A stretch of 64,000 bases of DNA from Pseudomonadota bacterium (GCA_021804825.1 JAJZGX010000002.1:2760-66759), one strand, 5' to 3'; numbered from the stretch's first letter, positions 1,984 through 40,950 are shown. Notes: a model not told the origin generated them from the letters alone. A program made the numbers and translations.

Positions 1984-2122
1984 GTCGCGTGCCGAGGCTT
2001 ATGCCGTGCGATGAATTTTGACAGGTGACCCTGCATCATGCGACATGACTTCAAGGGGAACTTGCAGGATAGGATCGGGTGTTGTTTTGCAGCATGTCCG
2101 AAGATGCTTGCCGCTTGGGTCA

Positions 2123-5050
2123 ATGAATTTGTCTGCAATACAGCGATTTTTGCTCTTGGGTCTGGCGATGTGGGCGCTTCTCATGCGTCCAGGCTTTGCC
2201 GCTGATTCCGCGCCGCCGACCTCGGCACAGTCCGCAACGGCAGCAGCCCAGCCGGTGCGTGTACCGCTGAAGATCGCCGCCGTTGACCTGACCCATTCCA
2301 TCCGACTTTACGCTGCCAATGGCGACCATCTTCAGGTTGCGACCGCGCCGGGGTCTGATGGCATTGTGCGACGTATCGAGGTTTCGGCGCGCCATCCCGG
2401 CACGTCGCCGGACTGGTTCACGATCTCGCTCACGAACGATACCAGCGAGCAACTCGAGCGTTTGCTGGTGGCCCCGCATTTTCGGCTGGTGGGATCGGGC
2501 ATTCTGGCGCCGGATCTCGGATCGGGTCGCATTGTGGCGCTGACGGCGAGCCAGGGCTTCGCACCTGTGCGCCAGACCTCGCTGGATGCCGACATTTTCC
2601 GCCTGACCATCGACCCCGGTTCGACGGTCACCTATGTCGGCGAATTGCGCACGAAAACCTTGCCCGAGCTCGAACTTTGGCGGCCCACCGCCTACAAGGA
2701 CGGCCAGATCAGTCTGGCCCTCTACAAGGGCGTCATCATCGGCATTTCGGCTTTGCTGGCGCTGTTTCTGACGATTGTCTTTGTTGTGCGTCGCGGTGTG
2801 ATGTTTCCGGCTGCGGCGGCGCTGGCCTGGGCGGTGCTGGCCTATGTCAGTCTGGATTTCGGTTTCCTTGGCCAGATTTTTGCGTTTGCACAGCATCATG
2901 GCCCGGTTTTGCGCGCCGCGACCGAAACGATCCTTGCCGCAACCATGACGGTGTTTTTGTTCGCCTGGCTCAATCTTTCATCCTGGCACGTGCGCGCCTC
3001 GCGCTTTACTGCGCTGTGGCTCACTGCTCTGGCCTTGCTGGTCGGCCTGTCGATTTTTCAGCCGCAAATCGCCGCGACGCTGGCGCGTGTGTGTATCGCC
3101 ACTGTGGCGCTGGTAGGCTTCGCGCTCATCGTGTTTCTGGCGGCGCATCGCTATGAGCGGGCGATCATGCTGTTGCCTGCCTGGTTCGTCCTGCTGGCCT
3201 GGGTGATGGCGGCAGGCTTTGCCCTCAGCGGTGCCATCAACAATGCCTATGTGTCGCCGGCCTTGATTGGGGGGCTGGTGCTCATTGTCATGCTGGTCGG
3301 TTTCACGGTCATGCAAAATGCCATTGCCGGAGGCGGGCTGTCTGAAGGTGTGGTCAATGATGCCGAGCTGCGTGCTCTGGCGCTGGCGGGTTCCGGCGAT
3401 ATCATCTTTGACTGGGATGTGGTTGCCGATCATGTCCATACCAGCGGCGAACTTGCCCATCAGCTCAATCTGCGCCCCGGGCAACTCGATGGCCCGGCGC
3501 TCGGCTTTGTCGAGACGCTGCACGTCAATGATCGCGATAATTTCCGCGCTTGCCTCGATGCGGTCATCGAGCAGGCGCAGGGGCGCATTTCACAGAATTT
3601 CCGCCTGCGCTCGCATGACGGCTATTACCTCTGGTTCAACCTCAAGGCGCGTCCGGTCGTGGCGGCGGATGGCACCGTGGTGCGCGTGATCGGCACGCTG
3701 GCCGATGTCACCGAGGCGCATGTTTCCCAAGAGCGTTTGCTGCGCGATGCCGTGCACGATAATCTGACGGGCCTGCCCAACCGCCCGTTGTTTTTTGACC
3801 GGCTCGACGCGGCGCTGGCCATGGCCCGGGCCGACTCGACGCTGCGCCCCACCGTGCTGACCATCGATATCGACCGGTTCCGCCAGGTCAACGAAGCCGC
3901 GGGGCTGCCGGCTGGCGATTCGGTTCTGCTCGCCATGGCTCGGCGGCTCGGACGCCTGCTGAAGCCTCAGGATTGTCTGGCGCGTCTTGCCGGAGATCAA
4001 TTTGCGCTGCTGCTGATGTCGGAACCACAAAGCGATCAGGTCATTGTTTTTGCTGATGGAGTGCGCAAGGCGCTCGCCATTCCGGTTGAAGTCAACCAGC
4101 GCAATGTGGCTTTGACCGCCTCGCTTGGCCTCGCGCTCTATGACCCGCAATTGCATCCTCTCGGCGAGGACATGCTGAAGGACGCTGAAATCGCCATGCG
4201 GCATGCCAAGCGCATCGGCGGCAACCGCATTGAAGTTTTCCGGGCCGGCATGCGCGCCTCGCGCACCGATCGGCTGGTGCTGCAAACCGATCTTGCCGGG
4301 GCGATGGAACGGGGCGAAATGAAGGTCTATTACCAGCCGATCATCCGGCTGGAAGATCGCACCATCGCCGGTTTTGAAGCGCTGCTGCGCTGGGACCATC
4401 CGCGCCTTGGCCGCATTGCCCCCGCGACCTTCATCCCGATTGCCGAAGAGACCGGCATCATCATTGATCTCGGCATTTTCGTGCTGGAGCGTGCGGCGCG
4501 CGAACTCGCCGCCTGGCAGCGGGCCGTCAACGTCACACCGCCGATTTTTGCAAGCATCAACATCTCGTCGCGGCAGCTGCTGCGCCATGACCTGCTGCGC
4601 GACGTGCGCAATGTGCTCAGCCGCACGCAGGTGACCCGCGGCAGCCTGAAACTTGAGCTGACCGAAAGCATGGTGATGGAAAGCCCGGAATTTGCAGCGC
4701 AAATGCTGACACGCATCCGCGAACTGGGTGCAGGCCTGTCGCTCGATGATTTTGGAACCGGCTTTTCCAGCCTGTCTTATCTGCAGCGCTTCCCGTTTGA
4801 CACGATCAAGATCGACCAGTCTTTCGTGCGCCAGAATGGCAAGGGTGCAAGGCCGGTGATCCTGCGCTCGATTGTCGGCATGGCGCATGATCTCGGCATG
4901 GAAGTGGTGGCGGAGGGCGCCGAAAGCGAATCCGACGTGATCGAGCTCTATCAATTGGGCTGCCAATATGCCCAGGGCTATGCGTTTCGCGAGCCGGTGA
5001 CCGCCGACGAAGCCCGCAAAATGATGGGCGCAAGCCAGGCGGCGGCTTGA
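2123..5050 (+). CDS. Membrane sensor protein: periplasmic domain + 7TM (7TMR-DISM-like) + PAS + degenerate GGDEF + EAL (probable c-di-GMP phosphodiesterase)
   Basis: Start re-set to ATG 2123 (MNLSAIQRFLLLGLAMWALLM.., signal/TM). A run of about 7 hydrophobic helices is followed by a PAS-like segment. The GGDEF position reads AGDQF (3989-4003). The EAL domain looks intact (GFEALLRW, ELTES, DDFGTGFSSLSYL, KIDQSF, EGAES, QGYAF). Confidence 0.9.
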   Translation: MNLSAIQRFLLLGLAMWALLMRPGFAADSAPPTSAQSATAAAQPVRVPLKIAAVDLTHSIRLYAANGDHLQVATAPGSDGIVRRIEVSARHPGTSPDWFTISLTNDTSEQLERLLVAPHFRLVGSGILAPDLGSGRIVALTASQGFAPVRQTSLDADIFRLTIDPGSTVTYVGELRTKTLPELELWRPTAYKDGQISLALYKGVIIGISALLALFLTIVFVVRRGVMFPAAAALAWAVLAYVSLDFGFLGQIFAFAQHHGPVLRAATETILAATMTVFLFAWLNLSSWHVRASRFTALWLTALALLVGLSIFQPQIAATLARVCIATVALVGFALIVFLAAHRYERAIMLLPAWFVLLAWVMAAGFALSGAINNAYVSPALIGGLVLIVMLVGFTVMQNAIAGGGLSEGVVNDAELRALALAGSGDIIFDWDVVADHVHTSGELAHQLNLRPGQLDGPALGFVETLHVNDRDNFRACLDAVIEQAQGRISQNFRLRSHDGYYLWFNLKARPVVAADGTVVRVIGTLADVTEAHVSQERLLRDAVHDNLTGLPNRPLFFDRLDAALAMARADSTLRPTVLTIDIDRFRQVNEAAGLPAGDSVLLAMARRLGRLLKPQDCLARLAGDQFALLLMSEPQSDQVIVFADGVRKALAIPVEVNQRNVALTASLGLALYDPQLHPLGEDMLKDAEIAMRHAKRIGGNRIEVFRAGMRASRTDRLVLQTDLAGAMERGEMKVYYQPIIRLEDRTIAGFEALLRWDHPRLGRIAPATFIPIAEETGIIIDLGIFVLERAARELAAWQRAVNVTPPIFASINISSRQLLRHDLLRDVRNVLSRTQVTRGSLKLELTESMVMESPEFAAQMLTRIRELGAGLSLDDFGTGFSSLSYLQRFPFDTIKIDQSFVRQNGKGARPVILRSIVGMAHDLGMEVVAEGAESESDVIELYQLGCQYAQGYAFREPVTADEARKMMGASQAAA

Positions 5051-15146: not shown

Positions 15147-15527
15147 ATGACGGAAGCGCCCGAGATGACAGCCAAAATCCTGCTCGCCGAGGACGATACC
15201 GATATGCGTCGCTTTCTGGTGAAAGCCCTGCAGAATGCCGGCTATGATGTCGCCTCTTTTGATAATGGCCTCTCGGCCTATCACCGGCTGCGCGAGGAGC
15301 CGTTCGAGTTGCTGCTGACCGATATTGTGATGCCGGAAATGGACGGGATCGAACTCGCCCGCCGCGCCACAGAGCTTGATCCCGACATCAAGGTCATGTT
15401 CATCACCGGCTTTGCCGCCGTGGCCCTGAATGCTGGCAACAACGCGCCACGCGATGCCAAAATTCTGTCCAAGCCCTTTCATCTCAGGGACTTGGTCAAT
15501 GAAGTCGGTCGCCTGCTCGCGGCCTGA
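15147..15527 (+). CDS. cpdR: Single-domain response regulator CpdR (ClpXP adaptor/localisation factor in the CtrA network)
   Basis: Start re-set to ATG 15147: MTEAPEMTAKILLAEDDTDMRRFLVKALQNAGYDV..LLLTDIVMPEMDGIELARR..KVMFITGFAAVAL..ILSKPFHL. This is a receiver domain only. The MFITGF and KPFHL motifs are typical of CpdR. Confidence 0.85.
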   Translation: MTEAPEMTAKILLAEDDTDMRRFLVKALQNAGYDVASFDNGLSAYHRLREEPFELLLTDIVMPEMDGIELARRATELDPDIKVMFITGFAAVALNAGNNAPRDAKILSKPFHLRDLVNEVGRLLAA

Positions 15528-33725: not shown

Positions 33726-33750
33726 CGCCCCTTTATGGGGCGTTTTCTTT
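33726..33750 (+). terminator. Rho-independent terminator after braC
   Basis: cgcccc-tttat-ggggcg hairpin (33726-33742) followed by ttttcttt. A second GC-rich hairpin (ggctcgccgcg-ttcg-cgcggcgggcc) lies just upstream, at about 33671-33696. Confidence 0.65.
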
Positions 33751-33766
33751 GAGTGAAGGCCGGGCT

Positions 33767-34459
33767 ATGAACGCGGTGGTTCAGGTGGACATGTGGGCTT
33801 GGTCGCTCGACCCGTCCGCGCATGCCATTGCCCATCATGCAGCGCTGCTTGATCGCGAAGAACGGGTGCGCGCCGGGCGCTTCCTCAACGAGCGTCATGG
33901 AAGCCGCTTTGTCGTCGGACGCGCCGGCATGCGGCTGCGGCTGGCGCGCTATATGAAAAAGTCTCCGGCCGATCTGGTCTTCACCTATGGCCCGCATGGC
34001 AAACCCATGCTGGCCGAAGCCGGTGCGCCGCATTTCAACTTGGCACATAGCGATGGCGAGGCGGTGCTGGCCGTCTGCCGCGAGCAGGCCGTGGGCGTCG
34101 ATGTCGAGCGTGGACACCGATTGGATACGGATATTGTCAGCCGGTTTTTTTCGGACGCAGAAATAGCCGCATGGCAACTGCTGCCGGACGCGTCGCGCGA
34201 GCGGGCGTTTTTCCGGGCATGGACCGCCAAGGAAGCGGTGTTGAAGGCGCTGGGCGTCGGATTGTCGGTGCCACTGTCGGCCTTCAGTGTGCGCATCAGC
34301 GCCGAAGAACCCCTGCAATTGCAATCGGCCCCACAGGGCGCAGCTTTGCCTGAAACCTGGTCCATGCAGGAATTTGCCCCGGCTCCTGACTATTATGGCA
34401 CATTGGCGGTGGCTGCGCCGCGCGTCGTCATAAACTGGCGGTCGCTGTCGGAGCGCTGA
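33767..34459 (+). CDS. 4'-phosphopantetheinyl transferase, Sfp/EntD type
   Basis: ATG 33767 is preferred over the TTG 33749 of the track, because the TTG lies inside the terminator T-run. Motifs: ..GPHGKPML.., FNLAHSDGEAVLAV, VGVDVER and FFRAWTAKEAVLKALGVG (W/KEA motif). Confidence 0.85.
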   Translation: MNAVVQVDMWAWSLDPSAHAIAHHAALLDREERVRAGRFLNERHGSRFVVGRAGMRLRLARYMKKSPADLVFTYGPHGKPMLAEAGAPHFNLAHSDGEAVLAVCREQAVGVDVERGHRLDTDIVSRFFSDAEIAAWQLLPDASRERAFFRAWTAKEAVLKALGVGLSVPLSAFSVRISAEEPLQLQSAPQGAALPETWSMQEFAPAPDYYGTLAVAAPRVVINWRSLSER

Positions 34460-34556
34460 CGGGGTTAGAATGGCGCTTGTAGCGCCCGCCATCTCTGGCT
34501 TAAGCTCGGCGCATTCTTGCAGTATGATTCGCACAACCAAAGCTTCTGGAGCCGCC

Positions 34557-35234
34557 ATGACCACGCTCACCCTCGATTCGCTTGATCTTGCCGCCCTTGT
34601 CGCCTCTCGGGTCTGCCATGATGTCATCAACCCGGTCAGCGCCATCATCAACGGCCTCGAGGTGCTTGATGAAAATGTCGATGATCCCGAAATGCGCCAG
34701 CATGCGCTGGAACTTGTGCGCAGCAGCGCGCAATCGGCGTCAGCCAAACTGCAATTTTGCCGCCTTGCCTTCGGCGCATCGGGTTCGATCGGGGCGATGA
34801 TCGACACGGGTGATGCTGAACGCGTGGCGCGCCATCTGTTTGAAAACGAGCGCACGAAGCTGGAATGGGATGCGCCACGCATTTTGCTGGCCAAGAACAA
34901 GGTGAAGGTCATCCTCAATCTCTGCCTCATCGCCAATGCCTGCATCTATCGCGGTGGCATTGTGGCGGTGAAAATCTCCGGCGAGGACGCCGATTTTGCT
35001 TACAGCGTCGAAGCGCGCGGCACCAATGCCAAGCTTCCGAGTGCCATACCGGGGCTGCTGGAGGGCAAGCCTGAGAACGACGCTGTCGATGGCAATTCAA
35101 TCCAGCCATTTTATACCGGGGTGGTGGCACGCGCCAGCAACCTCACCCTGAACGTCGTAGTGGAGGCCGATTGCGTGGCGTTTGCTGGCCGCTCTATGGA
35201 GATCGTCGAGAAAAACGATGCTGAAGCGGCCTGA
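34557..35234 (+). CDS. chpT: Histidine phosphotransferase ChpT (CckA-ChpT-CtrA/CpdR phosphorelay type)
   Basis: Start re-set to ATG 34557 behind GGAG. LAALVASRVCHDVINPVSAIINGLEVLDE.. (phospho-His in CHD), ..AKLQFCRLAFGASGS.. and a degenerate ATPase-like C-terminal domain. It is collinear with Caulobacter ChpT as I recall it. Confidence 0.85.
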   Translation: MTTLTLDSLDLAALVASRVCHDVINPVSAIINGLEVLDENVDDPEMRQHALELVRSSAQSASAKLQFCRLAFGASGSIGAMIDTGDAERVARHLFENERTKLEWDAPRILLAKNKVKVILNLCLIANACIYRGGIVAVKISGEDADFAYSVEARGTNAKLPSAIPGLLEGKPENDAVDGNSIQPFYTGVVARASNLTLNVVVEADCVAFAGRSMEIVEKNDAEAA

Positions 35235-35328
35235 TGGCCCTTGCAGGTTTTGATTTCAAGGCTCCCTTAATACCTTTCTGAAATTCTGTTCAGCAAGACG
35301 CAAGCGGCGCGTCTCGGCTGGCTGACGC

Positions 35329-37890
35329 ATGGACGATTTGCTCAAAGAATTTCTGACCGAAACCAGCGACCATATCGAGGCCGCGGGCAGCCAGATCGTG
35401 CTGTTCGAGCGCGACCCCTCGAATGCGCAACTGATCGCAGGTATTTTCCGGCTGGTGCATACGATCAAGGGCACCTGCGGCTTTCTCGGTCTGCCGCGTC
35501 TGTCACGGCTGGCTCATGCCGCCGAGGCGATGATCTCGCATTTGCGCGACGGTGGCCGACCGGAAACCTCGCACGTCTCGCTGATTCTGGCGGCGATCGA
35601 CCAGGTGAAATTCATCATTGCCGAGCTTGAGCGCACGGGTGCCGAGCCGGAAGGCGATGATGCCGCACTGATTGCCCGCCTGACTGCCGTGCGCGAGGGT
35701 GATGTCGGCGCCGTTGGTGCCGCGACCCCGCCGCTCGCGCCCGCGCCGACAGAGGCGGCTGCCGAGATCAACACGCCGATGGCGGTGACGGACGTGCCGG
35801 TGACGGCCCCCGAACCTGCGGCGCGACACGAGACCGTGCGCGTTTCCGTCGATACGCTCGAACGCATGATGATGCTGGTTTCGGAACTGGTGCTGACCCG
35901 CAACCAGTTGCTCGACATCGTGCGGCGGCGCGACGACGAGACGCTGAACCAGCCGCTGATTCGCCTGTCGTCGCTGACCTCGGATCTGCAGGACAGCGTC
36001 ATGCGCTCGCGGATGCAACCGGTCGGGCGCCTGTTCGCGGGGCTGCCGCGGTTGGTGCGTGAACTGGCCAGCGAACTGGGCAAGCCGCTGCAACTGATCA
36101 CGGCGGGGGCCGAAACCGAGGTTGATCGCCAGATCATTGAACTGATCCGCGATCCGCTGACCCATCTCATCCGCAATTGCGCCGACCACGGTATCGAGCC
36201 GCCCGCCGAACGCGCCACCCGCCGCAAGGCCGAGACGGGCACCATCCGGGTCAGCGCTTCCCATGAAGCCGGCCAGATCATCATCGAAATCTATGATGAC
36301 GGGCGCGGGCTGGATGTTGCCCGCATCCGCGCCAAGGCTATGGCGATGCGCCTCGTACCCGAGGCCGACATTGCGCGGATGAATGACGAGGAAATCTGCC
36401 GCTTCATTTTTGCGCCGGGCTTTTCGACCGCCAGTGCAGTGACCAGTGTTTCCGGCCGCGGTGTCGGCATGGATGTGGTGCGCGAAAACCTTGAGGCGCT
36501 CGGTGGTTCGGTGGCGCTTTCGACCACGGCCGGGCAAGGCACCAGCTTTTTCCTGAAAATTCCGCTGACGCTGGCGATTGCGCCTGCCTTGATCATCGAG
36601 GGCGAACCTGGCCAGCGGTTTGCCTTGCCCCAGCATTGGGTCGTCGAAGTGGTGGGGCTTGACGAAACCGGGGGGCCATCGATCGAATGGGTGCAGGGGG
36701 CAAGTCTGCTGCGCCTGCGCGAAGCGGTCATTCCGGTGATCAATCTCTGCCAATTGCTCATGCAAGAGGGCCATGCGGCGGAATCCTCGGCCTGCGACCG
36801 CATCGTCGTCATGCGCCTGCGGGATTTCACCTTCGGTCTGCGGGTGCGCGGTGTTGCCGATGTGCAGGAGGTGGTGGTCAAGCCGCTGGGCTCGCTGCTC
36901 GGGCCTTTGCCGCTATTTTCCGGCAATACCATTCTGGGTGACGGCGCGGTCGTGCTGATCCTCAATCCCGGTGAAATTGCACAGCGACTTGGCCTCGAGC
37001 GCGTTAGCGATTTTCGCGTGCATGCGCGCGCCGAAGAGTTTGTCATCCCCGCCACGCGCACCAGAATGATCCTGTTCAGCGCCGGTTCTGGCCCGCTGAA
37101 GTGCCTGCCGCTGTCGGTGATCAGCCGGGTCGAGCAATTCGACACAGCCGCCATCCAGAAGGGCGAAAATTGCCTGGTTGTGCCGTTCCAGGGCCGTTTG
37201 ATGCCGTTGCTGATGGTCGGCGAGGACATTGATCTGGCTTTGGCGCCGCAATGCCCGGTGCTGGTCATGGCGGTCGGCGGCGAGCCAATGGGCCTGATCA
37301 TTTCCGCCATTGTCGATATCGTCGATGTCGAGCTTGATATTGAAATTGCCGGGCATCATGATCGGGTGCTGGGCATGGCGCAGATCGGCGACGCGGCGGT
37401 TGAAGTGCTGGACGGTGCCTGGTTCATGAACAATGCCCGCCCGCAGGCTTTCGCGCGCGGTCAGGTCAAGCGTTTTCATGTGTTGCTGATCGATGACAAG
37501 TCGTTTTTCCTCGACTTGCTGTCCCCGGTGCTTTCGGTGGCTGGCTATGATGTGACCACCACGGATTCGGCCGCTCAGGCGATCATGCTGATGGAGCGCG
37601 GCGCCAAATTCGAAGCCATCATAACCGACACCGACATGCCGGACATGGATGGCTATACGCTGGCCCGTGCGCTGATTGCCGATCAACGCTGGAGTTGCCC
37701 GCCCATCCTCGCGCTGGCCTCCTATGCTGGCCCGATCATTCAACAGGCGGCAAAGGCCAGCGGCATGGTGACCGCCGTCGGCAAATTCGACCGTCGTGCC
37801 TTGTTGAAGAGCCTGGCTGATGTCCTCGATCAGGCCACCATCGCGAAACAGACCATCGAAACCGATTTGATTGCGAGGCTGCACACATGA
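35329..37890 (+). CDS. cheA: Hybrid chemotaxis histidine kinase CheA: HPt - dimerisation - HATPase - two CheW-like domains - C-terminal receiver
   Basis: 853 aa. HPt is FRLVHTIKGTCGFLG. The kinase core has DPLTHLIRNCADHG, DDGRGLD and GRGVGMDVV. Two CheW-like segments follow, then a REC (HVLLIDDKS..AIITDTDMPDMDG..VGKFD). Confidence 0.93.
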   Translation: MDDLLKEFLTETSDHIEAAGSQIVLFERDPSNAQLIAGIFRLVHTIKGTCGFLGLPRLSRLAHAAEAMISHLRDGGRPETSHVSLILAAIDQVKFIIAELERTGAEPEGDDAALIARLTAVREGDVGAVGAATPPLAPAPTEAAAEINTPMAVTDVPVTAPEPAARHETVRVSVDTLERMMMLVSELVLTRNQLLDIVRRRDDETLNQPLIRLSSLTSDLQDSVMRSRMQPVGRLFAGLPRLVRELASELGKPLQLITAGAETEVDRQIIELIRDPLTHLIRNCADHGIEPPAERATRRKAETGTIRVSASHEAGQIIIEIYDDGRGLDVARIRAKAMAMRLVPEADIARMNDEEICRFIFAPGFSTASAVTSVSGRGVGMDVVRENLEALGGSVALSTTAGQGTSFFLKIPLTLAIAPALIIEGEPGQRFALPQHWVVEVVGLDETGGPSIEWVQGASLLRLREAVIPVINLCQLLMQEGHAAESSACDRIVVMRLRDFTFGLRVRGVADVQEVVVKPLGSLLGPLPLFSGNTILGDGAVVLILNPGEIAQRLGLERVSDFRVHARAEEFVIPATRTRMILFSAGSGPLKCLPLSVISRVEQFDTAAIQKGENCLVVPFQGRLMPLLMVGEDIDLALAPQCPVLVMAVGGEPMGLIISAIVDIVDVELDIEIAGHHDRVLGMAQIGDAAVEVLDGAWFMNNARPQAFARGQVKRFHVLLIDDKSFFLDLLSPVLSVAGYDVTTTDSAAQAIMLMERGAKFEAIITDTDMPDMDGYTLARALIADQRWSCPPILALASYAGPIIQQAAKASGMVTAVGKFDRRALLKSLADVLDQATIAKQTIETDLIARLHT

Positions 37891-38387
37891 CCATTTCTGC
37901 AACCCCCTCGGCCCGTGCCATTCTAGCTCCCGTCGTGCAGCAGGCCGTCGCGACCACAAGAATTTTCACCGTCCGGGTCGCTGATGAGACATTTGGCATC
38001 CCGGTGGCCGCTGTCCACACAGTGTTCATGATCGATCGGCTTTCGCCGGTGCCCTTGGCCCCTGTAGCGGTCATGGGACTGGTCAATCTGCGCGGCCGCA
38101 TCGTCACGGCACTGAGTTTGCGGCGCCGTCTCGGCCTTGCCGAGCTCAATGTCTCGACCAGAGTGGCCATCGTCATGGAAAACGAGGGTGAAATGCTGGC
38201 CCTCGTCGTTGATGAGGCCGGCGATGTCATTGATCTCGACGCCCATGACCAGATCGAATTGCCACGACACATGACGGCCAGCCGGGCCGCCGTGACCCGC
38301 GCGGTTTATCGCCATGCCCGCGGCCTGCTTTCCATCCTCGATATGGCGGCAATTTATGCCCTGACGCCCGCGATGACAAATTCCTGA
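37887..38387 (+). CDS. cheW: Chemotaxis coupling protein CheW
   Basis: 166 aa CheW-like domain (..IFTVRVADETFGIPVAAVHTV..VNLRGRIVT..). ATGA overlap with cheA. Confidence 0.9.
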   Translation: MTISATPSARAILAPVVQQAVATTRIFTVRVADETFGIPVAAVHTVFMIDRLSPVPLAPVAVMGLVNLRGRIVTALSLRRRLGLAELNVSTRVAIVMENEGEMLALVVDEAGDVIDLDAHDQIELPRHMTASRAAVTRAVYRHARGLLSILDMAAIYALTPAMTNS

Positions 38388-38421
38388 AACTTCACCCATG
38401 CTCACATCAAGGTCAAAAGTC

Positions 38422-38790
38422 ATGAAACACGTTCTGGTTGTCGACGATTCATCCGTCATCCGAAAAGTTGCCACCCGCATTCTCGAATCGATGCGCTTTG
38501 ACGCTTCCGAGGCACCTGGCGGGCGCGAGGCGCTGGCTGCCTGCCAGGAGCATATGCCCGATGCCATCCTGCTGGACTGGAACATGCCGGAGATGGATGG
38601 GTTTCAGTTCCTGCAGGAATTGCGTCGCATGCCAGGTGGCCACGGCCCCAAGGTGTTGTTCTGCACGACCGAGAACGAAGTGGCCTATATTGCAAAGGCC
38701 ATGCATGCCGGTGCCGACGAATATATCATGAAGCCGTTCGACAAGGATATATTCCGCTCGAAACTCCAGGAAATCGGCCTCATCGCGTAA
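38422..38790 (+). CDS. cheY: Chemotaxis response regulator CheY (single receiver domain)
   Basis: Start re-set to ATG 38422: MKHVLVVDDSSVIRKV..AILLDWNMPEMDGFQFL..IMKPF. Confidence 0.9.
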   Translation: MKHVLVVDDSSVIRKVATRILESMRFDASEAPGGREALAACQEHMPDAILLDWNMPEMDGFQFLQELRRMPGGHGPKVLFCTTENEVAYIAKAMHAGADEYIMKPFDKDIFRSKLQEIGLIA

Positions 38791-38824
38791 CGCCGCCACG
38801 CCACGCAGCAGGGGTCAGATCGAC

Positions 38825-39502
38825 ATGCGAACCGCACCGGATGCTCCAGGCGATGTCATAAAGGCGGTGGGCGAACCCATCGTCATGCGACGTTTTTCGC
38901 CCATGCCCCCCGCCGCGCTGCTGATAGGCGCTTCGACAGGCGGCCCGCAAGCCCTCGAACTTTTGCTGACAACCGCCTCGAGCTGGCTGCGGCTGCTGCC
39001 CATCGCTGTGGTGCTGCACGCGCCGCCCGGTTTCATCGAGGTCGTTGCTGCCAATATTGCCCGCGCTTCCGGCATGCCCACGCGGATCGCCTGCCATGGT
39101 GACAAATTCCTGCCCGGCACGATCTATTTCGCCCCCGGCGACAAGCATTTGCGAGTCATGCGGGCCGACCGCCGGGTGATCCTGATGCACAGCGATGCCA
39201 AGCCCGAGAATTTCTGCAAGCCGGCAGTGGACGTGCTGTTTTCCAGCGCCGCACGCGCTTTTGGCCCCGAGGCGCTGGGCATTGTGCTCACCGGCATGGG
39301 ACGCGATGGCCTGGCCGGTTCACGGATGCTCGTTGACGCTGGTGGCTCGGTGATCGTGCAGGACGAAGCCTCTAGCGCTGTCTGGGGCATGCCAGGGTCC
39401 ATTGCCCGCGCCGGACTGGCCAGCGCGGTCTTGCCGCTGGCCGGCATGGCTTCGGCGCTCGATGGCCTGCTGGTGGCGAAGCAGCGGAGGGTCACGGCGT
39501 GA
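38825..39502 (+). CDS. cheB: Protein-glutamate methylesterase CheB, catalytic domain only (no N-terminal receiver)
   Basis: 225 aa with the catalytic Ser motif IGASTGGPQAL, His in VLHAPPGF and Asp in LTGMGRDG. There is no REC domain in frame upstream. Confidence 0.88.
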   Translation: MRTAPDAPGDVIKAVGEPIVMRRFSPMPPAALLIGASTGGPQALELLLTTASSWLRLLPIAVVLHAPPGFIEVVAANIARASGMPTRIACHGDKFLPGTIYFAPGDKHLRVMRADRRVILMHSDAKPENFCKPAVDVLFSSAARAFGPEALGIVLTGMGRDGLAGSRMLVDAGGSVIVQDEASSAVWGMPGSIARAGLASAVLPLAGMASALDGLLVAKQRRVTA

Positions 39503-40365
39503 ACATGAACGTCAAAGCCCTCCAGAGATTTCTGTCGCAGCAGGCCGGTCTCGCCTTCCCGCCCGAGAAAGCCTGGCTCGCCGAAAGCCGCCTGCAGCCC
39601 GTGGTGGAACGCCACGGCCTTCCCACCATTGATGCGCTGATCGGCCAGATCGTTTCCGGTTTCGAGCCGCAGCTCGCCGCTGAAACCGTGGAAGCGATGC
39701 TGACCCACGAGACATTTTTCTTTCGCGATCGCCTGCCGTTTGATCAGTTCCGCACGACCATGCTGCCGGATATCATGCGCCTGCGCGATTCCGATCGCCG
39801 CATCCGTATCTGGTCTGCGGCCTGTTCAACCGGGCAGGAGCCCTATTCTTTGGCCATGCTGCTCGATGAGGAATCGCGCAAGCTGAATGGCTGGCGGGTT
39901 GAATTGCTGGCGTCGGATATTTCCGCTTCGGTCATTGATGTGGCGCGGCGTGGTTTGTTCTCGCAATTCGAGGTGCAGCGCGGTTTGCCGATCAACCACT
40001 TGCTGCGTTATTTCCATCGTGCCGGCGAATATTGGGAAATCGCCGAGCATATCCGGGCGCGGATCGAATTCCGGCAGATCAATCTCATGAGCAACATCAG
40101 CCGACTGGGCCAGTTCGACCTGATTTTTTGCCGCAACGTCCTGATCTATTTCGACGACAAAACCCGCGCCAGTGCACTCGCGCAATTGACCTCCGCGCTG
40201 GCGCCGGGTGGCTATCTGGTTTTGGGCGCCTCCGAATCCCTGCCCGACTGCCCGGAGGATCTGAAGCCCATGTCGTTTCAAAACAGCATTTTCCGCAAGA
40301 CTGAAGCGGGCTCGCCGCTGGAGCGCCATTGGGCGCAACCCGGCTCGCGCCTGAGCAAGCTGTAA
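39499..40365 (+). CDS. cheR: Chemotaxis protein methyltransferase CheR
   Basis: 288 aa with ..THETFFFRD.., the SAM motif RIWSAACSTGQEPYSLAM and ..IFCRNVLIYFD.. The start is GTG 39499 (overlapping the cheB stop) or ATG 39505. Confidence 0.92.
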   Translation: MNMNVKALQRFLSQQAGLAFPPEKAWLAESRLQPVVERHGLPTIDALIGQIVSGFEPQLAAETVEAMLTHETFFFRDRLPFDQFRTTMLPDIMRLRDSDRRIRIWSAACSTGQEPYSLAMLLDEESRKLNGWRVELLASDISASVIDVARRGLFSQFEVQRGLPINHLLRYFHRAGEYWEIAEHIRARIEFRQINLMSNISRLGQFDLIFCRNVLIYFDDKTRASALAQLTSALAPGGYLVLGASESLPDCPEDLKPMSFQNSIFRKTEAGSPLERHWAQPGSRLSKL

Positions 40366-40371
40366 CACGAG

Positions 40372-40950
40372 ATGCAGCCGCCACGCATTGTGGAGACCCT
40401 GCGGCTGACGCTGCGGCCTGTGGCGCTCGGGGACGCCCGCGAGATTTATCGCGGCTGGGCCGGGCGCGCCAAGGCCACCAGAATGATGAATTTTCCGCGC
40501 CATCTCAACCAGACAGCGAGCCAGGCCTGGGTCGAACGCTGTCTTCGCAACTGGCAAGAGGCAACGGCTTTTGCCTATATGATCCTCTTGCGGGATACCG
40601 GCGAGCGCATGGGGTCGATCGAAATAGCCCTGCAAGGCAGCGCTGCTGAAATCGGCTATATATTGGCAGAACAGTTCTGGGGCCGCGGCTATGCCACCGA
40701 GGCAACCAGGGCGCTGGTCGACTGGGCCGAAGCGCAGCGCGACATCGGCCGCATCAGCGCCACCTGCCACCCCGATAATATCGCCTCAAGCCGGGTCATT
40801 GAAAAAGCCGGATTGCACCTCGAAGGCCGTTTGGAGGATGCGACCAGCTGGCCGCAATTGCAGCGCAGCAATGGCCCTTGTCTGGTCTACAGCCGCTCCT
40901 TCGGAGGCCCGCGACAGCCGATCGAGCATGCGCCGCTCAGGCTGCAATGA
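40372..40950 (+). CDS. GNAT-family N-acetyltransferase (RimJ/RimL-like)
   Basis: 192 aa: LRLTLRPVALGDAREIY.. ..GYILAEQFWGRGYATEATRALVDWA.. ..NIASSRVIEKAGL.. It starts 6 nt after the cheR stop. Confidence 0.8.
   Translation: MQPPRIVETLRLTLRPVALGDAREIYRGWAGRAKATRMMNFPRHLNQTASQAWVERCLRNWQEATAFAYMILLRDTGERMGSIEIALQGSAAEIGYILAEQFWGRGYATEATRALVDWAEAQRDIGRISATCHPDNIASSRVIEKAGLHLEGRLEDATSWPQLQRSNGPCLVYSRSFGGPRQPIEHAPLRLQ

Follow-up and report, generated by a model that had tools for sequence, protein, structure and literature searches.

An F5-type che operon with a predicted CtrA-box promoter beside chpT in Hyphomicrobiales

Introduction

The routes by which environmental signals reach the CtrA circuit, and the coupling of motility and chemotaxis outside Caulobacter, are only partly understood. 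Within that circuit the phosphotransferase ChpT receives phosphate from the receiver domain of CckA and hands it to CtrA and CpdR. A 64,000-nt stretch of DNA from a Pseudomonadota bacterium (GCA_021804825.1 JAJZGX010000002.1:2760-66759), here termed the window, raises the question of why a chpT gene should stand directly upstream of, and on the same strand as, a complete set of chemotaxis genes, cheA-cheW-cheY-cheB-cheR, the first of which encodes a hybrid kinase with a C-terminal receiver (REC) domain. A preliminary description of this locus, made from its sequence alone, had suggested that the receiver of CheA could act as a second phosphodonor, or as a sink, for ChpT, and had characterized the cluster as receptor-less and non-flagellar.

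The explanation favored here, with a probability of roughly 0.6, is that the locus consists of an ordinary chpT and, beside it, a che operon of the flagellar F5 class that is driven mainly by its own CtrA-box promoter. The link between the two would thus be transcriptional, running through CtrA, and direct phosphotransfer between ChpT and the Che proteins appears unlikely. The evidence for this reading is given first, followed by the alternatives.

Results

A conserved promoter-like block between chpT and cheA

The che genes of the window overlap by 4 nt or are separated by 6-34 nt, and the sole sizeable gap is the 94-nt spacer between chpT and cheA (35235-35328). It contains no terminator-like site, as had been stated in the preliminary description, and no sigma-70 consensus promoter was found by scanning its 94 nt. 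What it does contain emerged from the comparison of orthologous spacers and not from the sigma-70 consensus scan, namely a promoter-like block, TTTCAAGGCTCCCTTAAT-N9-GAAATT (35253-35285, plus strand), that is conserved among them. In the form TTTCAAGGCTCC(C)TTAA the block is conserved in relatives whose CheA proteins are 95%, 87%, and 69% identical to that of the window, and the remaining spacer diverges. The block includes a CtrA-box-like motif, TCAA-N7-TTAA (TCAAGGCTCCCTTAA, 35256-35270), which differs by one mismatch from TTAA-N7-TTAA; from its second TTAA it is 62 nt to the ATG of cheA.

A CtrA-dependent promoter was defined as one with TTAA-N7-TTAA (or a TTAACCAT half-site) near the −35 region that is conserved in orthologous promoters, and the motif was examined in a set of 32 non-redundant chpT-cheA spacers of 79-359 nt. 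TTAA-N7-TTAA with at most one mismatch is present in 23 of these 32, at a density of 4.6/kb compared with 0.11/kb across the whole loci, which is an enrichment of about 41-fold. Its position is fixed as well, since in 20 loci the downstream TTAA precedes the start codon of cheA by 58-67 nt and is followed after 11-13 nt by a GATAGT/CATAAT-like element. The boxes of three loci (L021, L043, and L072) are perfect. Spacers of the Beijerinckiaceae type have TCAA or TTCA as a degenerate first half-site, and those of the Xanthobacteraceae type carry perfect or near-perfect boxes farther upstream, in a different conserved context. In the 300 nt before chpT and in the 400 nt before ctrA, motifs of the TTAA-N7-TTAA type show an enrichment of about 5- to 8-fold as well; CtrA sites are expected at both places.

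The spacer block is therefore read as a predicted CtrA-dependent promoter of the che operon, with the box over the −35 region. Such an arrangement has parallels, as in Sinorhizobium and Caulobacter genes for motility and chemotaxis are under direct CtrA control (PMC4433202), and the majority of promoters that CtrA activates carry one site at −35 (PMC11264516). The predicted promoter points to a transcriptional link between the cell-cycle circuit and the che genes, and to transcription of the latter that is at least partly separate from that of chpT.

The spacer also contains the inverted repeat AGACGC-N7-GCGTCT (35296-35314, plus strand) that had been described as a hairpin lacking a U-tract. 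The repeat is real, has no T-run and probably lies in the 5′ leader of cheA. Its candidacy as a regulatory RNA or a terminator was rejected, as, in addition to the missing T-run, it is not conserved in L087 or L001 (the 87% and 69% relatives, respectively), in folding energy the spacer does not surpass shuffled sequence (z=−0.33), and the spacer has no match in Rfam.

The chpT gene

The gene upstream of the spacer, chpT (34557-35234, plus strand), encodes a 225-aa protein with its phospho-accepting histidine at residue 21 in the sequence RVCHDVINP, a residue that is invariant in 12 homologues. The protein has a Pfam HPTransfase domain (PF10090, E=2e-32) and a weak HisKA match, and it scores 276.9 bits on NF046018, the NCBIfam ChpT equivalog of the Brucella/Rhizobiales type, thereby passing the 240-bit cut-off, while its score of 191 bits on the Caulobacter-type model NF046025 is under the cut-off of 225. 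It matches the structures of Brucella ChpT (4QPJ/4QPK, E=4e-54) and also those of Caulobacter ChpT (4FMT, 1e-30, and 4FPP), and the CHD histidine motif aligns with both sets of structures over 200 residues, so that the gene had been recognized correctly as a ChpT homologue.

To place this gene among its relatives, a ChpT-centered sample was assembled with one genome per species, comprising the 80 closest loci of 575 genomic matches (50-64% identity, 80 different genomes), and among these best 80 ChpT occurs in one copy per genome. In the ChpT tree copies linked to che, copies linked to ctrA, and unlinked copies are mixed within one clade after another, and the clade of Methylocystis and Methylosinus contains linked, unlinked, and ctrA-adjacent states. 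Because of this intermixing, the copies are considered to be orthologues and the che cluster to have been lost repeatedly. From these comparisons the chpT of the window is identified as the ordinary and presumably single-copy gene for the ChpT that works in the CckA-ChpT-CtrA/CpdR phosphorelay, with its role in phosphotransfer assigned by homology.

Two features upstream of chpT are recorded as side observations. A GANTC (GATTC) motif of the kind methylated by CcrM lies at 34526-34530, about 30 nt before the chpT start codon, inside a block that is conserved in L086 and L087 and beside a conserved GGCTTAAGCT element. The next gene upstream encodes a PPTase (33749-34459) and is itself preceded by a strong terminator-like hairpin with a T-run (33726-33742); after this hairpin the next terminator is found only beyond the che genes, so that read-through from the PPTase gene into chpT, and perhaps into the che genes, is possible.

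The che genes and the class of the Che system

Gene calls and both the Pfam and NCBIfam models confirm every gene of the cluster that had been named. The first gene, cheA (35329-37890, plus strand), encodes a hybrid F5-type kinase with the Pfam domains Hpt (aa 3-93), H-kinase_dim (168-226), HATPase_c (275-414), CheW (428-553), a second CheW (∼581-695), and REC (718-827). The first CheW domain scores 84 bits and the second 25.3 bits, compared with a Pfam gathering cut-off of 23.5, and the region between Hpt and the dimerization domain (aa 94-167) has no Pfam match to the CheY-binding P2 domain. The cheW gene (37887-38387, plus strand; Pfam CheW E=6e-25) overlaps the cheA stop codon by 4 nt. It is followed by cheY (38398-38790, plus strand), the product of which is a single-domain receiver (Pfam Response_reg E=5e-30) that retains DD, DWNMP, T, Y106, and K109 in an alignment with Escherichia coli CheY and 30 orthologues; in relatives, gene callers place the start at the equivalent of 38422. 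Next is cheB (38825-39502, plus strand), which encodes a methylesterase domain only (Pfam CheB_methylest E=2e-51) and matches the NCBIfam CheB model at positions 168-349 only, without a receiver. Last of the che genes is cheR (39499-40365, plus strand; Pfam CheR E=1e-57 plus CheR_N), which overlaps the cheB stop codon by 4 nt.

The cluster is best assigned to the flagellar F5 class, on the architecture of its CheA and not on class hidden Markov models, because the protein combines one Hpt domain, duplicated CheW domains, and a receiver with the absence of P2. This architecture is nearly diagnostic of the F5 class, and CheW is duplicated in 99% of F5 CheAs (PMC10782961). In Azospirillum brasilense and Azorhizobium caulinodans the CheA of this class likewise carries two CheW domains and a receiver, and the A. 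caulinodans system controls chemotaxis (PMC10782961). The label of alternative cellular function (ACF), that is non-flagellar output, which had been attached to the cluster is consequently abandoned: ACF-type CheAs often have multiple Hpt domains and a receiver, and the single Hpt and duplicated CheW of the present CheA point instead to F5, to which its canonical CheY can be added. The distribution of the cluster bears on this indirectly, as it is kept in the motile Methylosinus and has been lost in most of the non-motile Methylocystis.

No gene for a methyl-accepting chemotaxis protein (MCP) was detected in the 64-kb window by tblastn with two queries, the signaling domain of Tsr (which detects the MCP of locus L004 at 1e-16) and the L004 MCP itself. 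Nor is an MCP gene hidden among ten further large open reading frames (ORFs) of the window, as these are housekeeping or c-di-GMP genes. The term receptor-less that had been applied to the cluster thus holds locally and fails as a description of the system: an MCP gene lies within 10 kb in only 1 of ∼35 related clusters (L004/L005), so the lack of one nearby is normal, and receptors are implied to be encoded elsewhere in the genome because CheB and CheR need MCP substrates. In the exceptional cluster, from a metagenome-assembled genome (MAG) of the Methylobacteriaceae, the MCP gene (L004 1-926, L005 2-925) immediately precedes chpT and shares its strand, giving the order MCP-chpT-cheA.

Several variations of the che genes were noted in passing. 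The CheB of the window (225 aa) is esterase only, as it is in loci of the Beijerinckiaceae type (212-243 aa), and in L060 and L065 a receiver-like segment directly precedes the esterase segment, from which it appears that the CheB receiver was lost in the lineage of the window; a CheB without a receiver would be predicted to stand outside phosphorylation control. The cheB gene is missing from L016, L026, and L091 (Methylosinus sporium and a Methylocystis MAG), and in L089 (8514-10061) cheB and cheR are called as a single fusion of 515 aa, which is either real or the result of a frameshift.

Conservation of the chpT-cheA junction and history of the locus

Conservation of the adjacency of chpT and cheA was examined from both sides. 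CheA homologues with identities of 52-95% come from assemblies of 'Hyphomicrobiales', Beijerinckiaceae, Methylovirgula, and Methylobacteriaceae. In the nine CheA-centered loci examined among these, cheA is in every case immediately preceded by a co-oriented HPTransfase gene. For the 80 ChpT-centered loci the genes downstream of chpT were classified by tblastn, three loci ending at a contig boundary and 77 being informative. The arrangement cheA(Hpt…REC)-cheW-cheY-(cheB)-cheR follows chpT in 29 of the 77, a cheY-like gene alone in nine, a convergent ctrA directly in five, and another arrangement in 34. The 29 che-linked loci include those of Methylosinus sporium, Methylocystis, Methylovirgula, Rhodoblastus, Methylobacterium aquaticum, Flaviflagellibacter deserti, Pseudolabrys, Rhodoplanes, and other Xanthobacteraceae, and at least four families have kept the co-oriented junction. 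The adjacency is therefore far beyond chance, and the random neighborhood that was to be considered at the outset does not apply to these Hyphomicrobiales families.

The surroundings of the junction reveal what appears to be an older arrangement. In 17 of the 29 che-linked loci a convergent gene follows cheR, with a score on NF045991, the CtrA equivalog, of 421.7 bits against a cut-off of 350. Upstream of chpT, genes for EipA and an inositol phosphatase are present in most of the 80 loci, whatever the downstream genes may be; these neighbors were found by tblastn with the two proteins, as clustering of the longest ORFs is noisy in high-GC DNA. Hence the usual order in carriers is eipA<-inositol-phosphatase<-|chpT->cheAWYBR->|<-ctrA, and the chpT-che pair of the window is best seen, from this comparison of gene orders, as the remnant of an old Hyphomicrobiales locus in which the che operon was nested between chpT and ctrA.

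Both flanks have been lost, with the junction left intact. The eipA and inositol-phosphatase genes are gone upstream in the lineage of the window (the window, L086, and L087), in L001, and in L004, and ctrA is gone downstream in the lineage of the window and in L004, while L001 keeps it. In the window the neighbors are the PPTase gene upstream of chpT and GNAT/metA downstream of the che genes, and no ctrA is present in the 64 kb. Partial che states are found in L062, L016, L026, and L091. A further observation concerns the loci that keep ctrA after cheR, all of which have a conserved ORF of 124-135 aa, with no Pfam match, divergent beside ctrA (L001 14258-14632, L002 14136-14543, and L088-L091 at ∼11.0-11.6 kb).

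Other genes of the window

The GNAT gene (40372-40950, plus strand; Pfam Acetyltransf_3 E=8e-33) begins 6 nt after cheR and is of the RimJ/RimL-like type. It is kept in L086 and L087 and absent from more distant loci, and it may close the operon in the lineage of the window alone. For A. caulinodans, Che proteins are reported to be acetylated (PMC9927263), and any link between this and the GNAT gene of the window is speculative.

The second known phospho-acceptor of ChpT is encoded by cpdR (15147-15527, plus strand), as had been proposed, its product passing the CpdR equivalog NF046022 with 196.2 bits against a cut-off of 180. The gene is 19 kb from chpT among unrelated housekeeping genes, between a gene for a SorC-type regulator and carB. 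The only other obvious signaling gene in the window besides cpdR encodes a 1010-aa 7TMR-DISM/PAS/GGDEF/EAL protein (2018-5050), a sensor for the turnover of c-di-GMP.

Discussion

A transcriptional link between the CtrA circuit and the che operon

In the favored reading, phosphate would pass from CckA through ChpT to CtrA, and CtrA~P would activate transcription of cheAWYBR, by which che expression would be coupled to that phase of the cell cycle in which cells are motile. The main driver of the operon would be its own promoter in the 94-nt spacer, where CtrA would bind the box-like site over the −35 region, and some read-through from chpT is likely because the spacer has no terminator, without being the main driver. 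The Che system would serve flagella. According to this reading the genes adjoin as parts of an old island of genes of the CtrA circuit and the CtrA regulon, and selection for co-regulation may have held them together.

Several points weigh against this explanation. The box of the window is imperfect, and two such matches occur in 64 kb where 2.7 are expected, which is not significant, so that whatever weight the site has comes from its conservation across loci, and from that alone. The F5 class was assigned from architecture and not from the MiST class models, and a flagellar output is presumed in a window that contains no flagellar or MCP genes. Adjacency is not needed for co-regulation, and the survival of the junction through several rearrangements of its flanks is not fully explained by it. 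Nor is it explained why a cheY-like gene should stay beside chpT after the other che genes were lost.

Neutral synteny

The first alternative is a single ancestral insertion of the che operon between chpT and ctrA followed by vertical descent, with no regulatory or biochemical meaning, in which case the conserved motif would be an ordinary housekeeping promoter. The whole block from eipA to ctrA is common to most carriers, as vertical descent predicts, the cluster has been lost many times with chpT kept, and the box of the window is imperfect. Mere inheritance does not readily account, however, for a chpT-cheA junction that outlasts independent breaks on both sides, or for a motif that is enriched about 41-fold at a fixed position, recurs in a different context in Xanthobacteraceae-type spacers, and is enriched upstream of ctrA and of chpT as well. 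This alternative is regarded as unlikely.

Phosphorelay cross-talk

The second alternative is closer to what the preliminary description had in mind, namely that ChpT exchanges phosphoryl groups with the receiver of CheA, with the CheY of the cluster, or with both. In one variant chemosensory input would feed or drain the phosphorylation of CtrA and CpdR, and in another ChpT would be the Hpt step of a relay from the CheA receiver. Docking of ChpT with several different receivers is known, and the CheA receiver has all of its catalytic residues and shares 40% identity with the CpdR of the window in its N-terminal half. Survival of the junction through independent rearrangements of both flanks and the position of chpT between the MCP gene and cheA in L004/L005 also count in favor.

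A hint in favor of cross-talk comes from nine genomes in which a cheY-derived receiver still follows chpT directly despite the loss of cheA, cheW, and cheB (L013, L039, L049, L051, L058, L069, L074, and L075, at ∼10.7-11.2 kb in locus coordinates, and L062). Eight of the nine also lack cheR, L062 alone having retained it. The retained receiver keeps DD and the acceptor aspartate and has lost the equivalents of W58 and Y106, with DWNMP changed to D(G/S)xMP and the tyrosine to phenylalanine or isoleucine. It may have been re-purposed, perhaps as an acceptor for ChpT, although the cheY-only genomes may have other CheAs.

Against exchange of phosphoryl groups, the receiver is a feature of F5 CheAs as a class and is not specific to those adjacent to chpT, and deletion of CheW2-REC from the CheA of A. 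caulinodans abolishes chemotaxis, indicating that this region is needed for chemotaxis itself (PMC10782961). On the CckA model the CheA receiver scores 30.5 bits compared with 79.6 bits for CpdR, and it is closer to receivers of the TorS/BarA type. ChpT is unchanged in many lineages that lack the whole che cluster, and the conserved promoter-like block in the spacer likewise counts against cross-talk. Per-site entropy in 34 linked and 48 unlinked ChpT sequences revealed nothing near the histidine helix, and the few sites that differ are in the C-terminal domain, in a comparison that is confounded by phylogeny. When the alpha-1 'specificity' residues of the CheA receiver, CheY, CpdR, and CtrA are aligned, the known partners of ChpT already differ among themselves, and these positions are uninformative here. 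Overall, then, cross-talk is also improbable. Its most elaborate form makes ChpT a shared hub, with which the CheA receiver, CheY, or both trade phosphoryl groups such that the array raises or drains CtrA~P and CpdR~P, or the relay gates chemotaxis, and with the retained CheY-like receiver as a dedicated third output of ChpT; this is considered distinctly doubtful.

A third proposal, that the gene is a paralogue dedicated to chemotaxis (an HPTransfase-family Che accessory) and not the cell-cycle ChpT, is rejected as highly implausible, for although the gene is directly upstream of cheA in every CheA-centered locus and sits between an MCP gene and cheA in L004, it passes the ChpT equivalog cut-off, is single-copy in each genome among the best 80 of 575 matches, shares its eipA/inositol-phosphatase upstream region and ctrA partner with unlinked ChpTs and with Brucella chpT, and falls in a tree in which linked and unlinked copies intermix.

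Comparison with known systems

The transcriptional explanation can be set beside several described systems. In Brucella abortus eipA (bab1_1612), chpT (bab1_1613), and ctrA (bab1_1614) are neighbors, with an experimentally supported CtrA site between the first two (10.1101/442541), and the widespread arrangement is read as this Brucella-type cell-cycle locus into which an F5 che operon has been nested. The loci described here resemble it in their ChpT orthologue, in the eipA upstream and the convergent ctrA downstream that most related loci possess, and in the CtrA-box-type motifs of their intergenic regions. They differ in that carriers have a five-gene che operon between chpT and ctrA and in that the lineage of the window additionally lacks eipA, the inositol-phosphatase gene, and ctrA nearby.

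The F5 clusters of A. caulinodans (cheA-cheW-cheY2-cheB-cheR) and of A. brasilense (Che1) have the gene order cheA-cheW-cheY-cheB-cheR, as in the window, and are not known to include an MCP gene. They are like that of the window in having a CheA with two CheW domains, a C-terminal receiver, and no P2 (PMC10782961), and unlike it in that the CheB of the window has no receiver domain. In the literature found, adjacency to chpT is not mentioned for either of these models, the loci of which were compared by description only. Similarly, no paper was found that links ChpT or an HPTransfase to a che cluster or that describes the order chpT-che-ctrA, in a search outside of which key work on the A. caulinodans phosphorelay lay, and a paper on che1-3 of Bradyrhizobium diazoefficiens does not mention ChpT.

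A precedent for cross-talk is the Che3 system of Rhodospirillum centenum, an ACF system controlling cyst formation with the hybrid kinases CheA3-REC and CheS3, in which a hybrid CheA-REC reportedly passes phosphate to another signaling protein (PMC3868531). By contrast, the system of the window is F5-like, with two CheW domains and a single Hpt, has a canonical CheY and no second kinase of the CheS type, and its neighbor is an Hpt-like phosphotransferase rather than a kinase. The predicted promoter itself resembles the CtrA-activated class II flagellar and chemotaxis promoters of Caulobacter and Sinorhizobium, which have a single TTAA-N7-TTAA-type site over the −35 region (PMC4433202 and PMC11264516), and differs from them in that the site in the window is predicted only and that its first half-site is degenerate in Beijerinckiaceae-type spacers.

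Implications

All of the parts belong to known families, a ChpT on the one hand and on the other an F5 Che system that is predicted to have a CtrA-box promoter, and should only the transcriptional link hold, the result would be a tidy observation in comparative genomics and not a new mechanism. What is described is nonetheless widespread, as in a large part of the Hyphomicrobiales, including the Beijerinckiaceae, Methylobacteriaceae, Xanthobacteraceae, and relatives, with methanotrophs and plant-associated bacteria among them, a complete flagellar-type che operon lies inside the chpT-ctrA cell-cycle locus with a predicted CtrA-box promoter of its own. The locus defines cultivable carriers in which it can be asked whether phosphate flows between ChpT and a Che kinase, and it offers a simple and testable wiring by which chemotaxis in these families would be gated by the cell cycle.

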